NCBI GenBank assembly: GCA_001029735.1
Contig: CP011213.1
Location: 76,087 to 140,086 of the forward strand
From: Berkelbacteria bacterium GW2011_GWE1_39_12
GTDB taxonomy: Bacteria; Patescibacteriota; UBA1384; UBA12157
DNA length: 64,000 bases
Direction: 5' to 3'
Shown here: in pieces, positions 12,822 through 62,330 of the stretch
Numbering within the stretch: the stretch's first letter is position 1
Layout of the letters: the number at the start of each line of letters is the position of its first letter
Translations under genes and position numbers: made by a program
Notes under the pieces: model-generated
Told to the model about the DNA's origin: nothing
What the model saw: the letters and a program-made list of their open reading frames with translations, nothing else
The model's database searches: none

Positions 12822-12881
12822 CTCAACGTATCAATTTGGCCTAACAAGGCCCTACTTTAACAACTAAAGGAGGTGAACAAA

Positions 12882-13583
12882 ATGCATGCGGCAGAACTGT
12901 TAATCTGGTACAATCTACTGTTTGTTATTTCGATTGTCACTGCGTTTCTTATCTTGTTGATCACGGCCGTAACTGGCATTGGCCACGAGATGGGCGGCGC
13001 GGAGGCAGATTTAGATGCAGACGTAGGTATGGACGCAGATACAGATGCTGGCATCGATGCTGACGCCGATGCAGGAGCTGATCACAGCTTTTTGCACGAA
13101 ACCGGCGCTCATGATCATGACGGCAGTCTACTGAAGGCCTTGACCTTGTTTGGCGTCGGAAAGGTTCCAATCTCTGTGATTGTAACCTTAGTCCTCTTCC
13201 TTTTTGGAATGCTGGGACTTTCGTCTAACTTGGTTTTTGAAAAGATGGGATTGCCACCGGTTGCTTACTTCTGGTTTTCTTTGTCAGCGGCGGCAATACT
13301 GTCGTTGATTCTTACCGGTCGTCTGGCTAACTTAGTGGCAAGATTCATGCCTTCACTAGAGACCACTAAGATAACGCCTTACGACTTGGTTGGCAGGGCA
13401 GGGACGGCAGAATACACGATCAGCACCAATGGAGGACGAGTAATTGTCAGAGACAGTCATCTTAACCTTCATGTGGTAGACGCCAGAACAATCGAAGGCC
13501 AGATTCAATCAGGCGAAGAGATTGTGGTTGTCGAGTACGAAAAAGAAGAGTCTCGTTACGTTGTGTCAAAGCTTGACCTATAA
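12882..13583 (+). CDS. NfeD-like (YqiJ/YuaF family) membrane protein with an Asp/Ala-rich acidic repeat and a C-terminal OB-fold.
   Basis: AAGGAGG RBS 8 nt before the ATG at 12882. EADLDADVGMDADTDAGIDADADAGADHS low-complexity segment. TM helices, then a C-terminal ~70-aa beta-rich NfeD-type domain. It sits directly upstream of a flotillin gene, the canonical arrangement. Confidence 0.65.
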   Translation: MHAAELLIWYNLLFVISIVTAFLILLITAVTGIGHEMGGAEADLDADVGMDADTDAGIDADADAGADHSFLHETGAHDHDGSLLKALTLFGVGKVPISVIVTLVLFLFGMLGLSSNLVFEKMGLPPVAYFWFSLSAAAILSLILTGRLANLVARFMPSLETTKITPYDLVGRAGTAEYTISTNGGRVIVRDSHLNLHVVDARTIEGQIQSGEEIVVVEYEKEESRYVVSKLDL

Positions 13584-13633
13584 CCTAGGCAAGGCAGTAC
13601 CGAAAGAAAAAACAAAAAACAGGAGGAACGTAC

Positions 13634-15535
13634 GTGGGAATCGGAGTAGTGATGCTATTAATTGGCATGGTCATGATTTTCGGACCATGGTTTGCGCCCG
13701 TAGAAGTACCGACAGGCGCTCGTCTGGTGTTTTCAGTCCTCGGCGGAATCTTATTCGCCGTCGGCAGCTTGGTGGTCATTATTACCAAGCTGTATGTCAA
13801 AGCGTCGGCAGAAAAAGCCTATGTGAGAACCGGTATGGGCAAAGCTAAAGTCATCATGGACGGCGGCTCGCTCGTTATTCCGGTTGTACATACACTGATC
13901 TGGGTGCCGCTTCGTACCTTCAAACTTGAAGTCATGCGCCAAGCGAATGATGCGCTGATTACTGGCGATAAGCTGCGAGCTGACATCAAGGCTGAATTCT
14001 ATATAAAGGTTCAGGCTAATGATGAAGATATCACGCAAGCAGCCCGATCATTAGGCGAAAGATCTGTCGACGAGCATAATCTTACCGGTATGATGATGGA
14101 AAAGCTGGTTTCTGCCATCCGGTCAGTTGCGGCAAAGTCAACTCTTGAGGAACTCAATAGTGACAAAGCGACTTTCGCTCAGAGCGTCGCTACTGCAGTT
14201 TCTTCAGACCTCAAACACAACGGTTTCACACTGGAGACAGTAACAATTTCCAGTCTGGACCAAACGCCGATCAACTTCCTCAAAGAAGATAACGTCTTCG
14301 ATGCGGAAGGACGCAAGCGAATCGCCGACATCACTAGTCAGGCTAAAGTCGCTGAAAACCAGTTCAGACGTACTGCCGAACAGCAAATTGCTGAGCAGGA
14401 CACTTTAACTCGTACAAAAGTGGCTGAGCAAGAGTATCTGCAGAATAAGGCCGACGCCGAACGCGACGCCAATATCAAGAAGACACAGGCCGAGCAACTT
14501 CGGGAGGCCGAGGTATACTCTGCCCAGCAGACGCAGCAGACGAAAGAAGCACAGATTCTTGCTGAGCAGAACGTCGGTCTGAAGGAAGCTGAAAAGGTTC
14601 GCGAGGTTCAGTTGGCGCAAATCGGCGCCGACCAAGCAGCCAAAACTGCCAGCGTCGAGCTGGAGAAAACGGTCGAAGTGGCCAATCGCAGGAAGCAGAT
14701 TGCTATTGCCGCGGCCGAAAAAGAGCGAGCGGACGCTGAAGCGCTGAAGTTGACAGCAGAGCAAGCGCGAGAGAAAGAGAACCAAGGCGTCATTACTGTT
14801 CAAGAAGTAGCAACTGCTGAACGCGATAAGCAAGTCAAGGTTATCGCGGCAATGCAGGACGCCGAGGTTCAGAAAACAGACCGGAATATGCAGGCAGACA
14901 TTGCCGCATACCAGGTCGAAAAGCAAGCCGACGCAGAGCGGAACGCTGCGACTAAGAATGCAGAAGCCATCAGAGTCGAAGCTGAAGCTCGCAAAGATGC
15001 GAAAGTCATGGAAGCCACTGGAGAACAAGCAGTCATGATGGTTCCCGTCAACGTCTCTGCAGAGCAAGTAGCAGTTGACGCGAAGCGTCAGAACGAGGTC
15101 GAAAAGGCCCGCGTTGACGTTTTGCAGCAGGAATTGTCCGCTAAGAGTGAGCACGAGAAGGTCTCCATCGAACTGGAAACAACTCTGGCCACGCTCCGCG
15201 TCCTTGAAGCTATTGGCGTCGAAGGAGCCAAAGCATATGGAGCGAGCATGTCTTCGGCTCACATCCAGGTTTTCGGCGATACCGAAACCTTGGGTAAGAT
15301 CAACAAGAGTTTCTATGGCGGTCTTGGTGCCATGAAACTTCTCGAGGGTGTAATCGCCGGTGACGGCGAGTCTCCGGTCGGCCAGATCGGCGACATGCTT
15401 GGTGGACTGATTAGGAGAGTCAAAGCAGGTGACACTGCTGGACTTATCGAGAAAGTTCAGGAGCTTGCTGCTGAAAACCCCGAATTGGTCCAGGCGCTCA
15501 TCTCTAAAGAGAGTGCCGAGCCCAAGATTGAGTAA
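13634..15535 (+). CDS. Flotillin-like SPFH/Band-7 protein (YqiK/FloT-like) with a long EA/KQ-rich coiled coil.
   Basis: N-terminal TM, SPFH core (VIMDGGSLVIPVVHTLIWVPLRTFKLEVMRQANDALITGDKL...), then about 350 aa of Glu/Ala/Gln/Lys-rich coiled coil. About 50% GC. Confidence 0.75.
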   Translation: MGIGVVMLLIGMVMIFGPWFAPVEVPTGARLVFSVLGGILFAVGSLVVIITKLYVKASAEKAYVRTGMGKAKVIMDGGSLVIPVVHTLIWVPLRTFKLEVMRQANDALITGDKLRADIKAEFYIKVQANDEDITQAARSLGERSVDEHNLTGMMMEKLVSAIRSVAAKSTLEELNSDKATFAQSVATAVSSDLKHNGFTLETVTISSLDQTPINFLKEDNVFDAEGRKRIADITSQAKVAENQFRRTAEQQIAEQDTLTRTKVAEQEYLQNKADAERDANIKKTQAEQLREAEVYSAQQTQQTKEAQILAEQNVGLKEAEKVREVQLAQIGADQAAKTASVELEKTVEVANRRKQIAIAAAEKERADAEALKLTAEQAREKENQGVITVQEVATAERDKQVKVIAAMQDAEVQKTDRNMQADIAAYQVEKQADAERNAATKNAEAIRVEAEARKDAKVMEATGEQAVMMVPVNVSAEQVAVDAKRQNEVEKARVDVLQQELSAKSEHEKVSIELETTLATLRVLEAIGVEGAKAYGASMSSAHIQVFGDTETLGKINKSFYGGLGAMKLLEGVIAGDGESPVGQIGDMLGGLIRRVKAGDTAGLIEKVQELAAENPELVQALISKESAEPKIE

Positions 15536-34816: not shown

Positions 34817-35011
34817 ACCTCTTCCTGATTGCTTTAATGGCGAGGCTCATGAGAGGCCTTCGGTCTCTGCAATCAAGATGCCTGCTGCCCTAGATCCCCC
34901 GACCGATCAAGGCCAGCAACTTATCAGATTGCTTTACAGGCCTCGGCCTAGTGTCATCAGCTGTTCCTGATTGCTTTAATTGGCTACAGACCTCGGCCAA
35001 TTAAAGCAATC
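34817..35011. repeat. Cluster of TGATTGCTTTAAT(T)GG repeats, plus a perfect 15-bp inverted repeat spanning the mraY stop codon.
   Basis: CCTGATTGCTTTAATGG (34824), CAGATTGCTTTACAGG (34925), CCTGATTGCTTTAATTGG (34965), and the complement CCAATTAAAGCAATC at 34997-35011. The last two form a stem of GATTGCTTTAATTGG-N13-CCAATTAAAGCAATC. Confidence 0.6.
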
Positions 35012-36009
35012 ATCATTCCAATAACTGCCATGGCGGCGGAGATGATCCAAAAACGCATAGTAACTTTACTTTCGGGCCAACCGAGGGCTTCGAAATGATG
35101 ATGTATTGGCGATGACAAAAAGACTTTCCGCTTAAAAAATTTCTTCGAAAAAAGTTGAATGCCAACGCTCGCCGCTTCTAAAACAAAAACAAAGCCGATA
35201 ATCGGCAGAACGGCGACTTGATTAGTCAAAAATGCGATTATACCTAAAGTAGCACCGAGAGCCATAGATCCGGTATCACCCATGAAAAAGCGTGCTGGAT
35301 GAACATTAAACCACAAAAAAGCCAACAGAGCACCCATAATTGTGCCGCAGAACGCCGCCAGAGCGATCTTACCCTCCGCCAGGGCGATAAAACCATATGC
35401 TCCATAAGAAATAGCCAGTGTTCCTCCCGCTAAGCCATCTAGGCCATCTGTTTCGTTAACTGAAAAAGCCATAAACAATATAACAAAAATAAATAACGGA
35501 ATATACCATAAGCCCAAGAAAACGTCGCCTAAGCCTGGCACATGAAAAATATCCCAACCAAGCTTAAAGTAAAACCACCAAGCGCCAGCTACAGCAATGA
35601 TCAAATATAAAAAGAACTTGTATTTAAAAGCTAATCCGCCACGATTAGGCCCAATGCCTTTTATATTGGCTAGATCATCGATGGCACCAATAATACCGGA
35701 AGCGACAAGGGCAAATAGCGGTAGCCAAGTACCAGCTCTGGTTAAGTTAAAAAGTAAAGTAATAACTGCTGTAGTAACCCAAACAAGCAAACCACCCATT
35801 GTCGGCGTGTTTTCTTTGCCTTTGTGAAGTTTATAAAAAATCGGCGCTTTCTTTTCATCTAACGCCGTATCTCTAATTCTTTTTCCTAGTTTGTTTTTGT
35901 ATAAGAAATCCGTAAATAGAGGTGTCCAAATAAGGGCGATTACAAAAGAAATGGCTGTGAGCCAAAACACTTTTGCAATGTCCGGAATGTAGAGTTGAAT
36001 TTGTTCCAT
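34984..36009 (-). CDS. mraY: Phospho-N-acetylmuramoyl-pentapeptide transferase.
   Basis: 10-TM MraY architecture. DDLANI, GLDGLAGG and HHHFE motifs. Confidence 0.9.
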   Translation of the reverse strand: MEQIQLYIPDIAKVFWLTAISFVIALIWTPLFTDFLYKNKLGKRIRDTALDEKKAPIFYKLHKGKENTPTMGGLLVWVTTAVITLLFNLTRAGTWLPLFALVASGIIGAIDDLANIKGIGPNRGGLAFKYKFFLYLIIAVAGAWWFYFKLGWDIFHVPGLGDVFLGLWYIPLFIFVILFMAFSVNETDGLDGLAGGTLAISYGAYGFIALAEGKIALAAFCGTIMGALLAFLWFNVHPARFFMGDTGSMALGATLGIIAFLTNQVAVLPIIGFVFVLEAASVGIQLFSKKFFKRKVFLSSPIHHHFEALGWPESKVTMRFWIISAAMAVIGMMIALIGRGL

Positions 36010-36120
36010 AATTTGTAAAAATTTCCGTGAGCGAAGCTCAATAATTTTGTAAAAAATTTCCGCGACAAGTAGTCTTGTCCATTTCTTTTCTAGTATAGCA
36101 AAAAATATGAACGATTTGTA

Positions 36121-39100
36121 CTAGTTGACCAGAATTCCATCCAATATTCTTGGGCCTACTCCGCGTGCTCCGCTTCCGCCTCCGACTTCAATATAATGGT
36201 CACCGCTGGCTGAGCGAACGATGTCCACCGTAGCTTTTTCCACCATGCTAATGTTTGGTTTTTGCTCCATATCTGAAAGTTTTTCTGCCAGCACGTCCGC
36301 TGCCATACCAGCGCTCCCGATTGCAGAATCTGTGACAAAAATCGAAATTTTCGCCTCAGGAAATTTTTCTTTAATTTGTCTAACTTTTTTCATCAAACAA
36401 TTTATATGGCCAAACAATACGTCTGAGGATTTCAATCCGTACAAACCATCCATCATGAAAGTCATTTGTTTCGTGCCGTCGTCTAAGGTAATTGGAGCCA
36501 GCAAAACAATTTCATCGGCAATACTTCCTTCTTGTCTTTCACTCTGACTCATCAAGTAAAATTTACCAGAATCACCAAAAGTGAGATTAGTATCGTTATT
36601 GCACTCTTTAGACATACAGCCCAGACACTGACGCATATTTTCAACAATTAAATTCATATTGTTAGTTGCCCGACTGATAATTTCAATCGAATTTTGTTTA
36701 CTACTGATCAGATGATCAATTTCATCTAATCGCTGTGATAATATTTCGTTGTGGCTCGAGCCAATACTTTGACGAATCTGACCTAACTGGTTTTGGATTT
36801 GCGAAAGCGATTGATCCATAGTAGCCATTTGATCGCGTATTGAATTGAGATAATTTTGTAAAACCATATGATCTGATTGATCAAGCTTATCATCGCTTTT
36901 AACAATAATATTTTCTAAATAGCTCAAATCTTGAGATAAGGCCAATGCACCGGAATGGACAGTAAATTCTTCTCCGAGCTTCCTAAATATCGAAACAACT
37001 TCTTCAGATGGCTGCAATCTTCTTTGGAGCTCGGCGATTGATTCGTTAATACCCATTCGTTCGATATTCTTAATACTACGAACTATCAGATTTATAGATC
37101 TGGTTTGATCCTGAATTTGCTTCACTTGCTCTGGAGTCCAATCGGTTATGCTGAAAATATTCTTTAATTCCTGTTGCACTTGTCTTTCTTCAGAACTGAA
37201 TTCCGGATTCTTACCGGTTAATTCTTGAAAAGTCTTTGCTAAAGTAGACCCAACCATTTTATCGTAAGTTTGATAGAGCCTTAAAGTTTGTTTATCCTTT
37301 TCTTCTGGATAGGCATCTTCATCCTTCAGGTCCTCAATAGCTCGAGTAATATTTCCCAATTTAACGTCAATCGTTTCGACATTTCCAATCATTTGACTAA
37401 TCGTTTCATCTTGTAAAATTTCTTGAAACTCAGACAATCTCTCTTCGCCAATGCCTAAGTTTTCAGCGGTAATAGGATTGCTCGATTTGCGATCTGATAA
37501 ATAATTTTGAATTTCTGTTAAGTTATCACCCTCAAAATACTCCGACGGATCAATTTCTCCATTTTCTCTAAAAGTCTTCCATTGGTCGTTAATCATGAGT
37601 CCCAAAAAGAAACTGAGTAATCTCTCTTTGCCTGTGTCTCGATCATTAAGATTACCCATATAACGAATAATATCTTGCATGGAACGAATTTTCTCACGAT
37701 CCATCTGGTCGGGAATTTTCAACAAGCCGAATCTTTGTTTGAAATTCGATTTCATATTTTCAATAATTTCATTCTTTTGTGCTTGAAAGACTTCGGTACT
37801 AGGTAACCCTTGAGATCTTGAGGCTAAAATATTTTCCAACGTATGACGGATTTGAACCAATTCTCTGGCATTGTATTCTATTTGACCAAATGAGTTTTCT
37901 TTTTGAATTACGACTAACTGAGCTTGATAAAAAGGAAGAAGCTCTGAATTAAATTCCTTCATTTCTTTCGGTGAAAGTTGAGCAATAACTTCCCCGAAAT
38001 TACTATAAAGTGCAGGTGAAGCTTGAACAATATCGGCTGAAATGTTGTAAAAAGCTGCCTTTTCATCCTCAAGCCACTTTTCTTTAACAAACCGCTCTTC
38101 CTGATTTTGCAAAAGTTGTAATATCTCCGACCGACTTCGGTCAGCCGTAGATTCCTTCCTCCAAGTATTTTTTAATTGATAGATCAGGTTGCTCATCGCC
38201 TCTACATATTTAAGCGGCCCAGCACCACCATTTGATTTGATTAATTCAGAGAGAAGATTTGCCGAAAACGGTACCCGGCCTTCGGAAAGTTCCGACAAAG
38301 TTGTTGCGTATAATTTTTGAAATTTTTCCAAAATAAACGCTTTATTTTCTTCATGACTGAACATTTCAGTGACTCTTTCAAGGGTTGCTGGATCAAATTT
38401 TTCTGTCTCCTCAATTTGTAAATATGCACCCAGATATTCTCGCCAGGATTGTTCGTTCAGCGGTTGATCATATAACTGTATTTTTGATTGCCAATGTTTG
38501 CCAGCCAAAAAAACTTCCATCAAAACAGACAACTTGGCTCCATCGTCTTCCAATCGAAATCCTTGGTCAAGAAATTTATAGACTAAATATCGTTGAACAC
38601 CGTCCAGTAAATCGTTGGCATCAATACTCCCGACAATTTGACAAACTTGTTGTCCGCTGTAAATAACGCTTTCATCGGCAATCGAGGCTAAACTTCGATT
38701 GTGCGACCATGTTCCATTTGATGACTTTTTTGAATAAATATTGGTAATTCTTTCAGCCTTATCTTCCAGGTTAATATCCAAATAGCCGGCAATTTGGAGG
38801 GCATAATGCCCGATTTCTGGATCATCTGAAGAAAGCATCAATGGCAGAATCTCATTTTGTAGTTGTGATAAACCTTCCGGACTAAGATCGCCCTTAGCAA
38901 ATTCTGAAGCGTAATTTTCAAAAATTTCAGCGGCCTGGCGAGACACATTGCCACCCTTTTGTAACCATTGAATAACTTCATCAACTGATTTTTTGTAAAG
39001 ATCATTTTTTCCAGAAGAATATTCTCTAATAATTTGAGGCGTTTTTAGTTGATCATTCATGAATTTACTGATTCTTTTGCGCTCAGTCTCACTATTGGTC

Positions 39101-41589
39101 GGATCATTTGCCAATTCAGTAAGTAAGTCGCGGCAATTTATATCATCAAATTCCACAAATCTTTTAAAAAGTAACCGAACAATGACAGGATTTGAAGATT
39201 TAACTTCGGAAAGTCTCGTTCGAAATTCCTTAGATTGTAAATATTCGCGACACACTCGACTATCGCTGCCCAAAGCATTAAAGCCCATTAACAAATGATT
39301 CAACTGTTTTGGATTCAATTCATCGTTATAGTTTATGGCTTCTTCCAGCATTTTCTGTAAAGAATCATCAAATTTTAACCGTTCTTCACCGGAAAGATCT
39401 TCTATTACTGCGGTTCGAAGGTCTGTTGACGCATGTGCGATTTTATCTAAGATGAGTTCGTGATTTTCGCGATCGTCTATAAGATAGCCTGTAAGCATGT
39501 CCATTGCCTTCGTTTCACATTTTCCTATTCTTGCTGTAAGCATATCAGCGATCTCTGGGTCAAAATCCATTGTTCTGATAACTTCATAAGCTTCATCTGG
39601 CACATTTTCCATTCGTCCAATCACCGACATGTAAAATGGTAGCTCTTGTGCATTTACACTTTTAAGCATGTGGACCAATATTTGATCAAGTTTTTCCTGA
39701 ACTAAAGCGGCTCCATCGCCAGTTTCATTTTCAGAGTTAGCGCTTGTCCAGTTTCTAAAATCATTTGGTCGAGTTTTAATTATCTTAAATAACTCCATTA
39801 AACCTGGGATATTTTCTTCCGATAGCTTTTCTAAATCACTATCAGAAAATGATAAAACATAACGAACGAGATCATTATTTTCCCCGCTGTCACCCTTACT
39901 ACTTCGGCCTAAAAAGGGATGAATCCCTTGGTAGTTAAAATTGTAAGCATTTAAAATGGTGTAAGGCACGATTTTGGGCTCGTGAAAAGCAAAAAGATTT
40001 CTACCTGGTTTTAGTCGACTATCTTCATTTTGATCTTGTAGGTCAAGGAACCGTTTCAAAGATCTCTCCGCTAAAAATTTTTCTACACTATCTAGCTGAT
40101 CCTGTCCAAAGTGCTCAATAATCATTGGCTCATTTGCAAATATCGCCCATTTTTCAGTGTCGATTTCACCTTCCAAGTTATTAATAAACTTCCCAGTCTC
40201 TTCAGAGCCAATAAAACTTCTCAGTTTTTTAATCCGATCTTGCATCTCCTTGTAGTGATCGTATCCCAAGACTTCAAAAGCCACTTCTTCGGCTTGCTCT
40301 AAGTCTATTTCATATGTCTCAAAAACCTCTGAAAATTCCAAGAGACGATCGAAATTCGCAACCAACATAGAAAATTTTTTGAATTCTTCATCTGCCGCCT
40401 TTTCTGGTCTCCCTACAGTATGTATTTTATCCGCGATATCATAACACTGGTCTACGTGATGTGCCCTAAGTCTGCGTTCTAATTCGCTAACTTTATTTTT
40501 CATCTCTTCGGCTCGGCTGGCCATTGCAGTACTTTCTTCTCTTGGCATATCTTTGGAATAATAATAAGAAGGCCTAAAGTCTGTTGCATAAGCTTGAGAT
40601 AAGATAGCAACAACCTCATTTTTCAGCTCTTCATCCACTTCGTCGGAGTCTGCAACAAGCCTTTCGGCGAAAGCAACGTCTAATTGATCCATCTCCTCTT
40701 TGGATAGTTGGACATCTACGGGCGCATCTGTTTCGATTTCAATCAATTTTTCTTCAATTTCTGAAACCAATTTTTCATAAACAGATCTGGATAATCGACT
40801 AAAATTGTCTCCAATAAGGCGCCGCTCCGAATCCATATTTGGCACATATGCGAATGGCTGACGAGCGGTATTTAGGTCGGAAATTTGCTGTGAATCATTC
40901 ATTAGAGACTGGATTTTATCTCTTAAAACAGGAATTTCTCGTTTTTTTCCAATGACTGGCTTAAGTAAATCGCCAATCAAAAAAAATAAATTTCCGGTCT
41001 TAACATTGAGCTCGTGTCGCGTATCAAAAATTTCATTGCTTTTTCTACTTTCAGCCACATGAAGATCTTCTATACTTTCATAGCCACTTTCGGCAAGTTG
41101 AACTTTCCGGAATTTTGTTGTTAGATCGCCTACTGCTTGACGAATTGATTCGAGTTTTACATAAGAGTCATTGTATCTTTCTTGTAGCAATTTTATGGAA
41201 AGCAAAATTTTATTTAACTGTTCTAAATTAAGATCGGAACTATTTAGATATTCATTAACCTGGCTGCCTACTTCTTCGGACATTTGGGCCATTACAGCTT
41301 TCTTTTTCCCTGAATCCTCTTCTAACCTCTTAAGTTCTTGTTCGATTAAGTCAGTTGAGGTAAAACCATCCAATGGTATTTCTTCCATATCAGTACTACT
41401 TAGCCAACTCAAAAGGCGATTTTGTCCATATCTAACTTCAGTCAAAAATTTGATTGCGTCTCGAAGCTTCTGCTTTTCAATCTGTTCTTCATTTGAATCT
41501 AAATTTTCCCGAACTTCAACTTCGTTTACAATTTCAGGATTATTAGGCAACAAAGCTTCTTGGTCTTCTTTTACTTCTTCGATCCCCAT
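36121..41589 (-). CDS. Giant (1822 aa) acidic, predicted cytoplasmic, largely alpha-helical hypothetical protein embedded in the dcw cluster.
   Basis: Uninterrupted 5.47-kb ORF at low GC. No TM segment, no P-loop, no catalytic motif recognised. A Cys cluster (CLGCMSKEC) and a Gly-rich tail near the C-terminus. Confidence 0.7.
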   Translation of the reverse strand: MGIEEVKEDQEALLPNNPEIVNEVEVRENLDSNEEQIEKQKLRDAIKFLTEVRYGQNRLLSWLSSTDMEEIPLDGFTSTDLIEQELKRLEEDSGKKKAVMAQMSEEVGSQVNEYLNSSDLNLEQLNKILLSIKLLQERYNDSYVKLESIRQAVGDLTTKFRKVQLAESGYESIEDLHVAESRKSNEIFDTRHELNVKTGNLFFLIGDLLKPVIGKKREIPVLRDKIQSLMNDSQQISDLNTARQPFAYVPNMDSERRLIGDNFSRLSRSVYEKLVSEIEEKLIEIETDAPVDVQLSKEEMDQLDVAFAERLVADSDEVDEELKNEVVAILSQAYATDFRPSYYYSKDMPREESTAMASRAEEMKNKVSELERRLRAHHVDQCYDIADKIHTVGRPEKAADEEFKKFSMLVANFDRLLEFSEVFETYEIDLEQAEEVAFEVLGYDHYKEMQDRIKKLRSFIGSEETGKFINNLEGEIDTEKWAIFANEPMIIEHFGQDQLDSVEKFLAERSLKRFLDLQDQNEDSRLKPGRNLFAFHEPKIVPYTILNAYNFNYQGIHPFLGRSSKGDSGENNDLVRYVLSFSDSDLEKLSEENIPGLMELFKIIKTRPNDFRNWTSANSENETGDGAALVQEKLDQILVHMLKSVNAQELPFYMSVIGRMENVPDEAYEVIRTMDFDPEIADMLTARIGKCETKAMDMLTGYLIDDRENHELILDKIAHASTDLRTAVIEDLSGEERLKFDDSLQKMLEEAINYNDELNPKQLNHLLMGFNALGSDSRVCREYLQSKEFRTRLSEVKSSNPVIVRLLFKRFVEFDDINCRDLLTELANDPTNSETERKRISKFMNDQLKTPQIIREYSSGKNDLYKKSVDEVIQWLQKGGNVSRQAAEIFENYASEFAKGDLSPEGLSQLQNEILPLMLSSDDPEIGHYALQIAGYLDINLEDKAERITNIYSKKSSNGTWSHNRSLASIADESVIYSGQQVCQIVGSIDANDLLDGVQRYLVYKFLDQGFRLEDDGAKLSVLMEVFLAGKHWQSKIQLYDQPLNEQSWREYLGAYLQIEETEKFDPATLERVTEMFSHEENKAFILEKFQKLYATTLSELSEGRVPFSANLLSELIKSNGGAGPLKYVEAMSNLIYQLKNTWRKESTADRSRSEILQLLQNQEERFVKEKWLEDEKAAFYNISADIVQASPALYSNFGEVIAQLSPKEMKEFNSELLPFYQAQLVVIQKENSFGQIEYNARELVQIRHTLENILASRSQGLPSTEVFQAQKNEIIENMKSNFKQRFGLLKIPDQMDREKIRSMQDIIRYMGNLNDRDTGKERLLSFFLGLMINDQWKTFRENGEIDPSEYFEGDNLTEIQNYLSDRKSSNPITAENLGIGEERLSEFQEILQDETISQMIGNVETIDVKLGNITRAIEDLKDEDAYPEEKDKQTLRLYQTYDKMVGSTLAKTFQELTGKNPEFSSEERQVQQELKNIFSITDWTPEQVKQIQDQTRSINLIVRSIKNIERMGINESIAELQRRLQPSEEVVSIFRKLGEEFTVHSGALALSQDLSYLENIIVKSDDKLDQSDHMVLQNYLNSIRDQMATMDQSLSQIQNQLGQIRQSIGSSHNEILSQRLDEIDHLISSKQNSIEIISRATNNMNLIVENMRQCLGCMSKECNNDTNLTFGDSGKFYLMSQSERQEGSIADEIVLLAPITLDDGTKQMTFMMDGLYGLKSSDVLFGHINCLMKKVRQIKEKFPEAKISIFVTDSAIGSAGMAADVLAEKLSDMEQKPNISMVEKATVDIVRSASGDHYIEVGGGSGARGVGPRILDGILVN

Positions 41590-41606
41590 TAATTCCTTTT
41601 TTGAGT

Positions 41607-42827
41607 TTAAGCTTTTAGTTTTTCAACAATCTCGTCCAATTTTATTCCTCTTGAGGCTTTGATTAAAATCAAATCACTTGGATTGATATTTTTCAACAAA
41701 AATTCTACTGCGTCTTCCTTTGAAATAAAATATTCTTGAGCATTATACCTCTTTGCTGCTTCCCCTACCGCAATCACCAAATCAGCTGTTTCTTTGGCTA
41801 ATATGCCAATTTCAGCATGTTCTTCATCGCTAATGTGCCCGATTTCTTTCATTTCGCCTAAAACAACAATTTTGCGGCCAGATGACGGTAGGCTTTTTAA
41901 GGTTGATAATGCCGCTTTCATGCTCTGTGGATTAGCATTATACGAATCATCAATGATAGTTGTATTAATTTTTCCCTTCAGGACCTGCATACGGTGTTTT
42001 TCATTTCTATTCATCGATAGTCCATGAACAATATCATCGATGTTCATTTCATAAATTAAGCCAACCGCTGCTGCCGCCAACGCAGCCGAAACATTAGCAA
42101 TATTTCCCAGAGTTTTCTGGGTCACAGGTACTTTTAGACCATTATATTTGATTTCAAATGATGTCTGACCGTCAAAATCTTCTATTTTAGTTTCTATTTT
42201 TTCAGCCATAAGATCCGCTGGAACTTTTACCGAATAGCTTTTCTTTTTATGTGCTTCTTTTTGATAAATCAATTGGCATGTTTCAGTGTCAGCGTTTATC
42301 ACTGCAATACCATTTTCATCTAGAGCTTTAAAAATCGAAGTTTTTTCTTCAATAATTTTTTCCATTGTGCCAAATTTTACCAAATGTGATGGACCGATCG
42401 CCGTTAAGACGGCAACTTTCGGCTTAACAAATGAGGTTAAATATTTGATATCGCCGGGTTTGTCGGCAGCCAATTCTAAAACCAAAATCTTAACCGTCTT
42501 CTGAGTAAAGCGTCTGAAAGGAACCAATATCAAAACGCCTAACCAGCCAAGTGCATTATTCGGCGATTTATCAAAACCTAGGACAGCCAATGGAACACCA
42601 GTCTCGGTATTTAAATTACCGGTAGATTTTCGAACATCGTCGCCGAATCTTACTTTCAAAACTTCAAAAATAGCTTCTTTGGCAGAAGTTTTTCCCACAG
42701 AACCTGTAATTGCGACTATCTCCGGCTTGGTGCGTTTAAGGTAGCCTGTAGCCCAAAATTTAAGATAAGAAAAAATAAGTTTTTGCATTGCTGATATTAG
42801 TATAATCGCTTGCTTCGCCATGGTCAA
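41607..42827 (-). CDS. murF: UDP-MurNAc-tripeptide--D-Ala-D-Ala ligase (short form).
   Basis: AITGSVGKTSAKE P-loop and the DDSYNANPQSMKAAL MurF signature. Confidence 0.8.
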   Translation of the reverse strand: MTMAKQAIILISAMQKLIFSYLKFWATGYLKRTKPEIVAITGSVGKTSAKEAIFEVLKVRFGDDVRKSTGNLNTETGVPLAVLGFDKSPNNALGWLGVLILVPFRRFTQKTVKILVLELAADKPGDIKYLTSFVKPKVAVLTAIGPSHLVKFGTMEKIIEEKTSIFKALDENGIAVINADTETCQLIYQKEAHKKKSYSVKVPADLMAEKIETKIEDFDGQTSFEIKYNGLKVPVTQKTLGNIANVSAALAAAAVGLIYEMNIDDIVHGLSMNRNEKHRMQVLKGKINTTIIDDSYNANPQSMKAALSTLKSLPSSGRKIVVLGEMKEIGHISDEEHAEIGILAKETADLVIAVGEAAKRYNAQEYFISKEDAVEFLLKNINPSDLILIKASRGIKLDEIVEKLKA

Positions 42828-42858
42828 CGAAAATTTTTTTGTATTTAAAAAGGCAGCT

Positions 42859-43173
42859 TTACACTGCCTGTTTCATAGCAAGTTGTTTCGAAAAATACGG
42901 ATTTTTCTTTCGATAATTATCTATGTTAATTGCTCCGATGGAAGCACTGGTTTGCTCGTCGGCACAAACAATCATAAGATAATCGTCGATCATTTTGGTT
43001 AGAGTATCTTTGCTAGTTCTGTAACGATCATGAAGATCCTCAGGCATCTGTCTGACAAGATCGGCTGCACTGAAGACTTCTCCAATAGGCATATCAGCCA
43101 GCTTATTATCAACCATTAACTCCAGCGTTCTTAACCTTTTACCTTTAACCATCAAGACGCCTCCAAAAAACAA
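42859..43173 (-). CDS. Small hypothetical protein (about 95-104 aa) occupying the slot where murE normally lies.
   Basis: ORF between ftsI and murF with no recognised motif. Confidence 0.4.
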   Translation of the reverse strand: MFFGGVLMVKGKRLRTLELMVDNKLADMPIGEVFSAADLVRQMPEDLHDRYRTSKDTLTKMIDDYLMIVCADEQTSASIGAINIDNYRKKNPYFSKQLAMKQAV

Positions 43174-43216
43174 TATCAGTGATATTATAGGCTAAAGAGA
43201 ACGAAAAGTCAATCTA

Positions 43217-44914
43217 TTATTGAGTCTTTGGAATATTATAGTAGTCTAATAACCATCTGGCAATTTCACCGAAGGTTGGTGCAGCCGAACTTTCTGCCCA
43301 ATCAACATTTTTTGGATTATCTAATCGAACGACCATGGCAAATTTTGGATCATGGGCCGGAGCAAAACCGACAAAAGATCCGATGTGTCGATCATCATAG
43401 TAGCCGCCCCCTGGTTTTGGCACTTGGGCTGTCCCCGTCTTACCGGCAACTTCATAACCCTGAACTGCTGCTCTTTTCCCGTGACCATTAACTACGACAG
43501 AGATCATCATATCGACAGTTTTGTTTGCTGTTTCTTCACTTAAAACTTCGGCAATTTCTTTTGGCTTGCGGATATCTTCTTTATTGGAATAGTCGATCGA
43601 TTTTGAAACAATGTATGGCTGCATCAATTTGCCTTTATTCGCCAAAGAGGCTGTTGCACTTAAAATCTGCAAAGGCGTGGATGTTAAACCTTGACCAAAT
43701 GTCACAGTAGCCCTTTGGACATCAGACCATTTTTTGGAATCACTCAAATCCCCAGGGCTTTCAGTATCCAATTCAATACCTGTCTTTCGGCCAAATCCAA
43801 AACTTTTAAAATATTTATAGATAGAATCTTTTCCCAAGAGTTCGGAAATCCACACCATTGCAACATTGTCGGAATTTTCCAGAACTTGAGTCATGGTTTC
43901 TTTACCATAAGCTTTGTTTGTTGAGGTATGGATCTTGTAACCGTTCACTGCTACTTCACTGCCAAAAACTTCTGTCGTATCTGGCTGAATCTTGTTTTCA
44001 TTTATTGCTGCGGCCATTGCAAAGGGTTTGAAAACCGAACCAGGCTCCCAAGCATTGTTAATCGCCGCATTATTGAACAAAGATTGATCAGTAACTTTAC
44101 TAGCGTTATTAGAGTCATAGGTAGGATAATTTGCCATAGCAAGAATTGCGCCAGTTTTCGGATCAGAAATAGCGATAGAACCAGAATCAGCTTTATATTT
44201 TTCCACAGATTCCTTCAATACCTGCTCGACTTCATATTGAATATCATGATTGATGGTTAAGACATAGTTCGTGCCATTTCGAGCGTCAAGTGTTGAATTG
44301 ATGCCAATAACATTACCTTTCGTATCTTGTTCGCCATATGTCTCTCCACCGACGCCTTTAAGCTCATTGTTAAAATATCCTTCAACGCCATAATGGCCGT
44401 CCCCTTGAGCATCAACGAAACCCAAAACCTGACTTGCTAACTCGCCTTCTGGATACAATCGAATACTTTGAGGCATAACCGTAACACCGCTTATTTTTAA
44501 ATCGGCAACTTTCTGCCCTTCTTCTTCGGAAATTTTCTTTTTGATTGGCGGCACATAGTACTTATCATTATTTATAGTTTTAAATAGTTCTTTCTCATCC
44601 ATTCCCAAGAGAGGAGCAATTTTTTTTGCAGCTGTATCTTTATCTTTTATTTGACGGGGTACTGCAAGTACTTGATACATTCGTGAGTTAGTGGCAGCTG
44701 GAAACATATCGGAGAAATAGATATTACCACGAAGAGCTGGCGTATCATGCTTAACCATATATTGATTTTCAGCTTGGGCTGCATATGCACTATGTTGTAC
44801 TATCTGTTTTTGAAAAAGTCTATAACCCAGGGAAAAAGCAATCAACACGAAAATCGCCCCAACAATTTGAATTCTTTTATGAAATTCTTTTGTCCCGTAG
44901 GAATTTGTAGGCAT
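43217..44914 (-). CDS. ftsI: Class B penicillin-binding protein (FtsI/PBP2-type transpeptidase).
   Basis: N-terminal TM, PBP dimerisation domain, SVFKPF (SxxK), SDN, KTGTA. Confidence 0.85.
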   Translation of the reverse strand: MPTNSYGTKEFHKRIQIVGAIFVLIAFSLGYRLFQKQIVQHSAYAAQAENQYMVKHDTPALRGNIYFSDMFPAATNSRMYQVLAVPRQIKDKDTAAKKIAPLLGMDEKELFKTINNDKYYVPPIKKKISEEEGQKVADLKISGVTVMPQSIRLYPEGELASQVLGFVDAQGDGHYGVEGYFNNELKGVGGETYGEQDTKGNVIGINSTLDARNGTNYVLTINHDIQYEVEQVLKESVEKYKADSGSIAISDPKTGAILAMANYPTYDSNNASKVTDQSLFNNAAINNAWEPGSVFKPFAMAAAINENKIQPDTTEVFGSEVAVNGYKIHTSTNKAYGKETMTQVLENSDNVAMVWISELLGKDSIYKYFKSFGFGRKTGIELDTESPGDLSDSKKWSDVQRATVTFGQGLTSTPLQILSATASLANKGKLMQPYIVSKSIDYSNKEDIRKPKEIAEVLSEETANKTVDMMISVVVNGHGKRAAVQGYEVAGKTGTAQVPKPGGGYYDDRHIGSFVGFAPAHDPKFAMVVRLDNPKNVDWAESSAAPTFGEIARWLLDYYNIPKTQ

Positions 44915-48261: not shown

Positions 48262-48744
48262 TTACAACAGGACTGGTTGAGCTGATTGCTGTTTGTCTTG
48301 GTTTTGAATGTATTTTCTGATTGCTATTTCACTGATGCCGATAGTGGAAACAAAGTATCCACGACTCCAAAAGGTTCCTAAGGGAATCTTTTTGTTTTTC
48401 TTTTTGATCCAAGCGGATGATTTACCTTTCAGAATGCTCATGGCGTAGCTAACAGAGTATTTAGGAGGAATAGAAATATAGATATGAATATGGTCATCGG
48501 CAATATGGATTTCGTAAATCACAAGTCCTTTCCATTTGGCGATCATCTTGAAGATACGTTCAAATTCTTGTTTAATATAGGTAGAACACATGACTCTACC
48601 GCGATACTTTGGTGACCAGACCAAGTGGTATCGACAACAGTATAACGCATGATTTAGTTGGTACAATCGAGAATTAGACAATAAAATCACCTCCTTCCTT
48701 CGTCGGGGTGATTTTATTGTAACGCGATGCTTTAAAACGCACAC
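48262..48744 (-). CDS. tnpA: IS200/IS605-family transposase TnpA (HUH, Y1).
   Basis: YHLVWSPKYR, HUH motif DDHIHIYISIPPKYSVS, catalytic Tyr region WSRGYFVSTIG. Confidence 0.8.
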   Translation of the reverse strand: MCVLKHRVTIKSPRRRKEVILLSNSRLYQLNHALYCCRYHLVWSPKYRGRVMCSTYIKQEFERIFKMIAKWKGLVIYEIHIADDHIHIYISIPPKYSVSYAMSILKGKSSAWIKKKNKKIPLGTFWSRGYFVSTIGISEIAIRKYIQNQDKQQSAQPVLL

Positions 48745-58999: not shown

Positions 59000-59123
59000 A
59001 AACTTTATGTTGGCGCCTACCTACTTTCCCGGAACCTTTCGGATCAAGTATCATCGGTACTATGGTGCTTAACTACTCTGTTCGGAATGGGAAGAGGTGT
59101 ACCCACCACGTTAAAGCACCAAC
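59000..59123 (-). rRNA. rrf: 5S ribosomal RNA.
   Basis: The reverse complement reads TGTTGGTGCTTTAACGTGGTGGGTACACCTCTTCCCATTCCGAACAGAGTAGTTAAGCACCATAGTACCGATGATACTTGATCCGAAAGGTTCCGGGAAAGTAGGTAGGCGCCAACA, with helix I pairing and the CCGAAC loop C motif. Confidence 0.85.
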
Positions 59124-59184
59124 ATAAAATTTTTAAAAGCCAACTCTACTCTGCTCTCCGGCATAGCCGGAGTAAGCAAGCTTC

Positions 59185-59236
59185 CCGGAATGGGAAGAGG
59201 TGTACCCACCACGTTAAGACACCAACACTCAAGCCA
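59185..59236 (-). pseudogene. Truncated 5S rRNA 5'-half pseudo-copy in the 23S-5S spacer.
   Basis: GTGTTGGTGTCTTAACGTGGTGGGTACACCTCTTCCCATTCCGGGAAG is about 94% identical to the first 48 nt of the 5S, then diverges. Confidence 0.6.
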
Positions 59237-59355
59237 CAATGGCTTCTTAAAATTCTTCTAACGTATGTTTTTTGATTTGATTTTTAACTGTTTAGTGACC
59301 TTGGTAGTTGTCCAACCGTCCTCTTAGACGCGTAACAAGTTACGCATAAAAGAGG

Positions 59356-62330
<2,975 letters not shown>

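Follow-up and report, generated by a model that had tools for sequence, protein, structure and literature searches.

The 64,000-nucleotide stretch of the Berkelbacteria bacterium GW2011_GWE1_39_12 genome analyzed in this work (contig CP011213.1, positions 76,087 to 140,086; hereafter the window) carries, between the murF and mraY genes of its division and cell wall (dcw) cluster, a 5.5-kb gene encoding an acidic protein of 1822 amino acids (aa). Far from being an orphan, this gene very probably belongs to an extensive family of giant acidic proteins from the candidate phyla radiation (CPR, or Patescibacteria), to which the family is restricted as far as it has been sampled. As the leading reading, to which we assign a probability of about 0.4, we propose a CPR-specific giant cytoplasmic protein whose working part would be a divergent domain resembling the Gcn5-related N-acetyltransferases (GNATs), as judged from structure models, and would serve acyl transfer or specific ligand binding. 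An enzyme mounted on a huge scaffold is considered more likely than a cell-division scaffold. A preliminary description of this DNA had portrayed the protein as a motif-less, lineage-specific candidate scaffold of the divisome or cell envelope, an interpretation that is partly supported by the results reported here.

A family of giant acidic proteins with a conserved C-terminal module

The gene is an uninterrupted open reading frame (ORF) without internal stops in its translation, and its product is 100% identical to the NCBI third-party annotation hypothetical protein DD449_02395 of Candidatus Berkelbacteria bacterium. Its segments and motifs are the following:

36121..41589, minus strand: complete ORF with ATG start, 1822 aa and TAG stop (ORF list and translation)
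38293..41589, minus strand: fast-evolving, strongly acidic N-terminal region, aa 1-1099 (homologue comparison)
36685..38292, minus strand: helical part of the family-defining module, aa 1100-1635 (AlphaFold2 (AF2) model and homologue searches)
36124..36684, minus strand: terminal alpha/beta domain with a predicted GNAT-like fold, aa ~1636-1822 (AF2 models and Foldseek)
36913..36954, minus strand: motif SGAxALSxDLxYLE, aa 1546-1559 (alignment A2 and AF2)
36571..36633, minus strand: family signature RxCLGCx5NNDTNLTFGD, aa 1653-1673 (alignment and AF2)
36421..36450, minus strand: b4-a3 loop DGLYGLKSSD, aa 1714-1723, where GNATs carry motif A (alignment and AF2)
36187..36195, minus strand: Y1799-x-E1801 in the Gly-rich b6-b7 loop (alignment and AF2)

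An exhaustive search with a hidden Markov model (HMM) profile of the C-terminal part of the protein (A1), with matches counted as clusters at 50% identity, recovered 283 clusters at E<=1e-3, of which 219 reached E<=1e-30. The region shared by the 283 clusters corresponds to the C-terminal ~720 aa of proteins that are typically 1500-1900 aa long, and in nearly all of the best 150 of the 283 matches this module lies at the C-terminus of a protein of 1300-2900 aa. A word-indexed search returned three relatives only, all of them sharing the C-terminal part, with aa 1112-1822 aligning to a 2317-aa protein (43% identity) and aa 1283-1803 to a 2901-aa Gracilibacteria protein (30% identity). With at least 283 clusters spanning all major CPR groups, the family is not lineage-specific in the narrow sense previously proposed, and the strongly conserved motifs of its C-terminal 720 aa are at odds with the description of the protein as motif-less. 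The family appears to be undescribed and has no Pfam model, and literature searches found no description of it.

The two parts of the protein evolve at different rates. Alignment with the closest homologue (P0002, 1809 aa) gives 32% identity over the N-terminal 1099 aa, versus 62% over the module. Within the N-terminal region only aa ~440-850 were detectable in five further family members, and a search of metagenomes found no close relative of the full-length protein. The strongly acidic character and the absence of transmembrane segments noted previously were both confirmed: the protein contains 320 Asp and Glu against 212 Lys and Arg residues (net charge -108, pI 4.75), and its highest 19-residue Kyte-Doolittle mean of 1.31 indicates that no segment is of transmembrane grade. 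Similar properties extend to the family. The 129 full-length representatives have a median length of 1668 aa and a median pI of 5.18 (range 4.64-6.2), and a strongly hydrophobic segment is absent in 122 of them.

Sequence-level searches with the protein were largely negative. Inspection of the 1822 aa revealed one CxxC, with no Walker A (NTP-binding motifs had earlier been described as absent), no HExxH and no internal repeats. A Pfam and NCBIfam scan of the full protein gave zero matches, SPOR, POTRA, FtsA-like or other divisome, membrane or peptidoglycan-binding domains included, and a PDB sequence search with the full protein returned nothing. PDB profile searches yielded chance matches only for the module alignment (A2), and for the terminal domain (A3) a chance-level generic beta-alpha-beta match to Gtr1 (E 0.028). 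Of four members compared with PADLOC, three, including the window protein, were assigned no family, and P0008 had only two sub-threshold matches. With PHROGs, run on four members, the window protein had one sub-threshold match of unknown function (E 0.0044) and the other three had none. The earlier statement that no enzyme signature is recognizable holds at the sequence level only, as structure prediction yields a GNAT-like terminal domain.

Predicted fold and conserved residues of the terminal domain

An AF2 model of aa 1100-1822 (723 aa), computed with 12 sequences, attained a predicted local distance difference test (pLDDT) score of 81.5 and a predicted template modeling (pTM) score of 0.71, and consists of a helical body followed by an alpha/beta domain. 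Helices make up 74% of aa 1100-1635 in this model; the protein had been described as helical, and it is for that segment that this is shown. Modeled on its own with 34 diverse sequences, the terminal domain reached a pLDDT of 84.7 and a pTM of 0.81, with the topology b1-a1-[loop]-b2-b3-b4-a3-b5-a4-b6-b7. This follows the strand and helix order of the GNAT fold, except that helix a2 is represented by a low-confidence loop.

Neither PDB nor BFVD yielded a significant Foldseek match to the complete 723-aa model, only long-helix noise being returned. When the terminal domain alone was compared with PDB, all of the top 50 matches were GNAT-fold proteins, among them AAC(6')-Iy (1s60), RimI-like (7n1l), Hpa2 (1qsm), NatD, Naa60, Eis, HAT1 and the GmvT toxin. 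Match probabilities ranged from 0.75 to 1.00, with 49 of the 50 at or above 0.91, and the target-normalised template modeling (TM) score reached 0.57 (1s60). The resemblance to a known fold hence concerns ~190 of the 1822 residues, the rest of the modeled module being without a detectable relative among solved structures. In particular, the helical body has no detectable sequence or fold similarity to tetratricopeptide repeat (TPR) scaffolds, NDP-forming acyl-CoA synthetases or helicase domains.

Conservation in the terminal domain was assessed in 148 sequences chosen by a loose pattern around NNDT. Eight positions are invariant in all of them (C1655, L1656, N1664, N1665, D1666, T1667, D1692 and D1714), although the invariance of N1664-N1665-D1666-T1667 is due in part to selection, since the sequences were picked around this pattern. 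A further set is conserved in at least 98%, comprising R1653, S1689, Y1717 (99%), G1718 (98%), S1793, Y1799 and E1801 (both 99%) and R1809, so that the last ~190 aa hold ~14 near-invariant (98-100%) polar residues. In the helical part, S1546, G1547, A1548, D1554, Y1557 and L1558 of the SGAxALSxDLxYLE motif are invariant in alignment A2, and this motif falls in a low-pLDDT loop. It and the RxCLGCx5NNDTNLTFGD signature, the two most conserved motifs, are also the two least confident loops of the module model. The signature, which can be written as RxCL[GS]Cx5NNDTNL[TA]FGD for diagnostic use across the family, spans a1 and the loop present in place of GNAT helix a2.

Two compositional features of the preliminary description fall within this domain. 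The Gly-rich C-terminus (7 Gly in the last 22 residues) coincides with the b6-b7 loop. The proposed Cys cluster exists in the window protein as C1655, C1658 and C1663, but only C1655 is invariant, C1658 being conserved in 94% of the sequences and C1663 not being conserved. A strict CxxC metal site was ruled out, because 6% of the members have A, M or P in place of C1658. A reading of the conserved Asp and Glu residues as a PD-(D/E)xK nuclease was likewise rejected, given that the motif spacing does not fit and that the fold search returned GNATs only.

In canonical GNATs, the a1-b2 loop, the end of b4 and the b6-b7 loop build the acceptor and catalytic site. By topology only, the invariant residues of the family map to these same three elements, and we infer from the models that they would correspond to the GNAT acceptor and catalytic elements. 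The combination of a GNAT-like fold with ~14 near-invariant polar residues argues for catalysis or specific ligand binding rather than for a pure scaffold.

Assessment of the GNAT-like reading

Several observations weigh against assigning the terminal domain an acyltransferase function. The Foldseek E-values for the domain against PDB are only 1e-3 to 2e-2, the query-normalised TM scores are 0.27-0.45, and confidence in both AF2 models is lowest at the signature loop. GNAT motif A (Q/RxxGxG/A) is absent, its position being taken by a DxxYGx[KRNQ][ST]xD loop in which only the first Gly is kept (98%). Pfam Acetyltransf models had no match at E<=10 in 34 diverse domain sequences, and hhalign of the domain against an alignment of canonical CPR GNATs returned a probability of 0.03%. 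In addition, clustering of the neighbours of 84 loci and a census of 150 neighbouring genes (see below) brought up no conserved neighbour that would offer a pathway clue to the donor or the acceptor. The domain differs from the GNAT superfamily, moreover, in terminating a helical protein of 1300-2900 aa. Since the fold matches while motif A and sequence-profile similarity fail, the domain is designated here as GNAT-like, on the evidence of the models, and not as a demonstrated GNAT.

Alternatively, the terminal domain could be a pseudo-enzyme. The protein would then be a structural component unconnected with cell division, in which the GNAT-like domain has lost catalysis and serves as the ligand- or partner-binding module of a large acidic cytoplasmic organizer, with basic ribosomal or nucleoid proteins as an example of its partners. 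Besides the missing motif A and profile similarity, the extreme acidity seen across the family and the mixed housekeeping and translation neighbours of its genes (aminoacyl-tRNA synthetases, GTPases, LepA and EF-P) are consistent with such a role. Cys, Asp, Tyr, Glu and Arg residues and an NNDT motif that are invariant throughout the CPR are more typical of chemistry than of a docking surface, though tight ligand binding would still fit them, and we regard this explanation as possible and less probable than the proposed acyl transfer or ligand binding.

If the terminal domain is indeed the working part, it would bind an acyl donor in the cleft between b4 and b5, with acetyl-CoA, another acyl-CoA or possibly an aminoacyl-tRNA as the donor, and would transfer its acyl group to an amine of a macromolecule. 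Residues proposed to build the acceptor site are R1653, C1655 and NNDT 1664-1667 in the a1-b2 loop, D1714 and Y1717 at the end of b4, and Y1799 and E1801 in the b6-b7 loop. The conserved helical body may position the substrate, and the fast-evolving acidic N-terminal ~1100 aa may act as a lineage-specific docking or spacer region. An arrangement of this kind, with a GNAT catalytic unit joined to a much larger non-catalytic body for selecting or docking a macromolecular substrate, is known from eukaryotic NatA (Naa15-Naa10), bacterial Pat and TmcA/NAT10, which are cited here as a functional analogy only. Should the domain prove active, it would define a highly divergent branch of the GNATs and a modification pathway specific to the CPR.

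Distribution of the family across the CPR

A scan of GTDB with one genome per species identified 85 confirmed family loci. The scans for loci rely on exact motif patterns, so that locus counts are not a measure of prevalence within the CPR. The hosts comprise Saccharibacteria, Dojkabacteria, Gracilibacteria, Peregrinibacteria/Peribacteria and Absconditabacterales, together with Nomura-, Falkow-, Kerfeld-, Magasanik-, Harrison-, Levy-, Ames-, Woese-, Davies- and Shapirobacteria. The family is thus present in every major CPR lineage sampled, including those of Parcubacteria and Microgenomates type. Copies also occur in metagenome-assembled genomes (MAGs) titled 'uncultured Gammaproteobacteria' or 'Bacillota' (L014, L017, L019, L020, L032, L034, L037, L039, L041, L042, L044, L047, L048, L055, L071, L072 and L080). 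These copies nest among named CPR copies, with 44-71% identity where a named neighbour was computable, and for this reason the titles are probably errors or placeholders.

Across the CPR, genomes mostly have a single copy of the family, and its inheritance is apparently vertical. Some Saccharibacteria carry two copies, located on two contigs of one MAG (L065/L066) or 3.6 kb apart on one contig (L068). In the Tn-seq tables of S. epibionticum (PMC10633639), no orthologue was located through a C-terminal GNAT annotation or through the DgkB-like neighbour seen in Saccharibacteria.

No informative Pfam fusions were found in seven longer family members. The sole examined member with a Pfam domain is L072 (CAYGFH010000002.1), a 22-kb locus spanned entirely by a single ORF (more than 7381 aa) that continues beyond both of its ends. 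The module occupies an internal position in this ORF (aa 3275-4049), with a separate canonical GNAT (PF00583, E 3e-7, motif RGGGLG) ~2270 aa downstream of it. Five proteins of Gracilibacteria/Peregrinibacteria type and 2200-2900 aa (P0004, P0067, P0072, P0086 and P0115) contain one strongly hydrophobic segment near aa 610-715, and these longest members may be membrane-anchored, judging from their sequence. In P0004, an HEVQH (HExxH) motif is also present ~1100-1200 aa from the N-terminus.

This distribution bears on the idea that the protein is an effector secreted or injected against a host, such as a GNAT-type toxin delivered by type IV secretion. CPR bacteria live as episymbionts, and their secretion systems are essential (PMC10633639); the GNAT-fold toxins GmvT and TacT are among the fold matches, and the protein is large, acidic and devoid of a signal peptide. 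Single-copy, vertical and CPR-wide inheritance is not what such an effector would lead one to expect, and the pattern of polymorphic toxins, with a conserved N-terminal delivery region, a variable C-terminal toxin and an immunity gene, is reversed in this family, where the C-terminus is conserved, the N-terminus is variable and no immunity-like or secretion neighbour is conserved. These differences, together with the PADLOC and PHROGs results described above, make an effector role highly improbable.

The CPR account for a large share of bacterial diversity, and their ~1-Mb genomes hold many conserved genes of unknown function. A 5.5-kb gene represents ~0.5% of such a genome, and the conservation of a gene this large across the radiation therefore points to a strong selective need. 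It is conceivable, albeit rather doubtful, that the family is an ancestral, CPR-defining component, namely a giant enzyme whose GNAT-like domain performs a new acyl transfer, or another group transfer, on a macromolecule central to the reduced CPR cell, such as the ribosome, a tRNA, an envelope precursor or a host-interface component, with a helical body of a fold so far absent from solved structures. Were this the case, it would amount to a new protein family with a new chemistry, encoded by some of the largest conserved genes of these genomes. What appeared as an oddity of one genome has become a family with defined boundaries (the last ~720 aa), a signature and a GNAT-like hypothesis with named residues, which can be tested because genetically tractable Saccharibacteria carry family members.

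Genomic context of the family

The position of the gene between murF and mraY, one of the most conserved gene adjacencies in bacteria, had led to the suggestion of a divisome or cell-envelope scaffold, that is, of a non-enzymatic cytoplasmic platform co-expressed with the dcw genes and organizing septal peptidoglycan synthesis in CPR cells. A large, acidic and helical protein without enzyme motifs at the sequence level would suit this role, and in the window the gene follows murF on the same strand after a 17-nt gap that includes a Shine-Dalgarno-like site. The arrangement is not confined to the window. On the P0002 contig, from a second Berkelbacterium, murF is followed by a 17-nt gap, the large gene and then the mraY start, even though identity to the window proteins is 65% for MurF and 43% for the large protein. 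Conservation of the murF-gene-mraY order in so diverged a relative indicates that it is stable within the Berkelbacteria lineage.

Outside this lineage the association is not maintained. The adjacency of family loci to dcw genes was checked by phmmer with the dcw proteins of the window, and among the GTDB loci it was detected elsewhere in two places only: L001, with the order FAM-ftsW-murG-...-murC-murB (FAM denoting the family gene), and L040, from a Magasanikbacterium, with mraZ-rsmH-x-FAM-x-clpB-like-mraY. Of 43 further metagenome loci only L093 was dcw-linked, in the same arrangement as L001. Dcw-embedded orthologues are hence limited to Berkelbacteria (the window and L089), L001/L093 and L040, amounting to three arrangements in ~125 loci, each at a different position of the cluster, and more than 95% of the loci are not dcw-linked. 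This is about what chance placement would produce, our own estimate of the chance expectation being ~1.5-2% for ~800-1000 genes per genome and a dcw cluster of ~12-15 genes.

Neighbour clustering of 84 loci revealed no conserved partner, the largest cluster being a generic ABC ATPase present at 9 loci. A census by Pfam family covered 150 immediate neighbours at 74 loci, and no family occurred in it more than four times. FtsW appeared once, tRNA synthetases and GTPases 2-3 times each, and the 25 most frequent families included none of the other dcw families. The scaffold proposal is therefore unsupported by synteny, given that contact with dcw genes is near chance and that no neighbour is conserved. 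The protein also lacks the transmembrane segment and the domains listed above that would tie it to the divisome, and ~14 near-invariant polar residues in a GNAT-like domain would not be expected of a scaffold. We consider it unlikely that the family serves as one, the dcw contacts of L001/L093 and L040 notwithstanding. The placement between murF and mraY is fixed in Berkelbacteria as a peculiarity of that lineage and not as a trait of the family, and it illustrates that dcw placement alone is a poor guide to function.

The location of the gene could also be explained if the protein modified a peptidoglycan precursor. FemX-type transferases are GNAT-fold enzymes that use UDP-MurNAc-pentapeptide, which is the product of MurF and the substrate of MraY, so that a Fem-like enzyme encoded exactly between the two genes would account both for its position and for the GNAT-type fold of its terminal domain. 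In contrast to FemABX proteins, however, the large protein has no FemAB Pfam match, contains a single GNAT-like domain rather than two in tandem, and is ~5 times the size of a Fem enzyme. No Fem or L/F-transferase structure was found among the top 50 fold matches, and the rarity of dcw linkage in the family further speaks against a precursor as the common substrate. A Fem-like activity is accordingly judged improbable.

Organization of the window locus

The immediate surroundings of the large gene, with flanking genes assigned by Pfam and NCBIfam, are the following:

41607..42827, minus strand: murF, directly upstream, 406 aa, with a short N-terminal domain
41594..41598, minus strand: Shine-Dalgarno-like AAGGA, 4 nt 5' of the ATG of the large gene, read from the sequence
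34984..36009, minus strand: mraY, directly downstream, with Glycos_transf_4 and the MraY signature

The MurF assignment rests on TIGR01143 (288.9 bits against a cutoff of 288.6) and on Mur_ligase_M and Mur_ligase_C matches. The 17-nt gap separates the murF stop (41609-41607) from the ATG of the large gene at 41589, and a 111-nt spacer separates the large gene from mraY. No terminator-like site was found on the minus strand in either gap. The GC content of the large gene (0.376) is close to that of the other dcw genes (0.382) and of the window (0.389), which confirms its reported native, low-GC composition, and a scan with family libraries detected no mobile-element genes at its borders. Because the gene is native, co-directional with the dcw genes, tightly packed behind murF and kept in order in a diverged relative, its co-expression with them, proposed previously, is plausible in Berkelbacteria, where sequence features suggest that it is probably co-transcribed with murF. 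As a property of the family, the synteny data do not bear it out.

These data also address the trivial explanation that the ORF is open by chance, is a pseudogene or entered the genome recently as foreign DNA, for which its unusual location would be the only argument. Such an artefact is effectively refuted by 1822 open codons in DNA of 38% GC, by the native composition and absence of mobile-element genes, by hundreds of homologues of the same architecture and by synteny in a diverged relative.

The gene order on the minus strand is mraZ, rsmH, ftsL-like, ftsI, a 104-aa ORF, murF, the large gene and mraY, followed by pgeF, murD, ftsW, murG, murC, murB, ftsQ, recJ, radA and a gene for a PIN protein. 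The large gene is a co-directional insider of this cluster in two Berkelbacteria, resembling an accessory gene in this respect, but it is outside the canonical dcw set. murE does not lie between ftsI and murF (region 41607-44914), where the 104-aa ORF (42859-43173) has no family match, and ftsA and ftsZ do not follow ftsQ, recJ, radA and the PIN gene being found there instead.

The spacer preceding mraY (36010-36120, minus strand) contains TGCTATACT at 36100-36092, an extended -10-like element, and then AGAAAAGAAATGGA. Both are kept in the relative L089 (6494-6535), in which the ATG at this site is the start of mraY. In the window, compared with L089, ~57 nt have been inserted between this old ATG and the actual start codon of mraY at 36009. 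Within the insertion, CGGAAATTTTT(T)ACAAA(A)TTAT is present as a tandem duplicate, and an upstream ORF of 14 codons now begins at the old ATG. The conservation of TGCTATACT and AGAAAAGAAATGGA, and the use of that ATG as the mraY start in L089, suggest that these elements may constitute an internal promoter or a leaderless start for mraY.

Elsewhere in the window, a gene for an IS200-like Y1 transposase (48262-48744), in a region of slightly raised GC content, is located ~1.4 kb upstream of mraZ. The 23S and 5S rRNA genes (59008-62326) have no adjacent 16S gene in the window, which indicates an unlinked rRNA operon. Positions 12873-15535 form a GC-rich island (0.49-0.52, compared with a genome value of 0.38) that contains genes for a membrane protein resembling YqiJ and for an SPFH/Band-7 protein of 633 aa, and that was possibly acquired horizontally.

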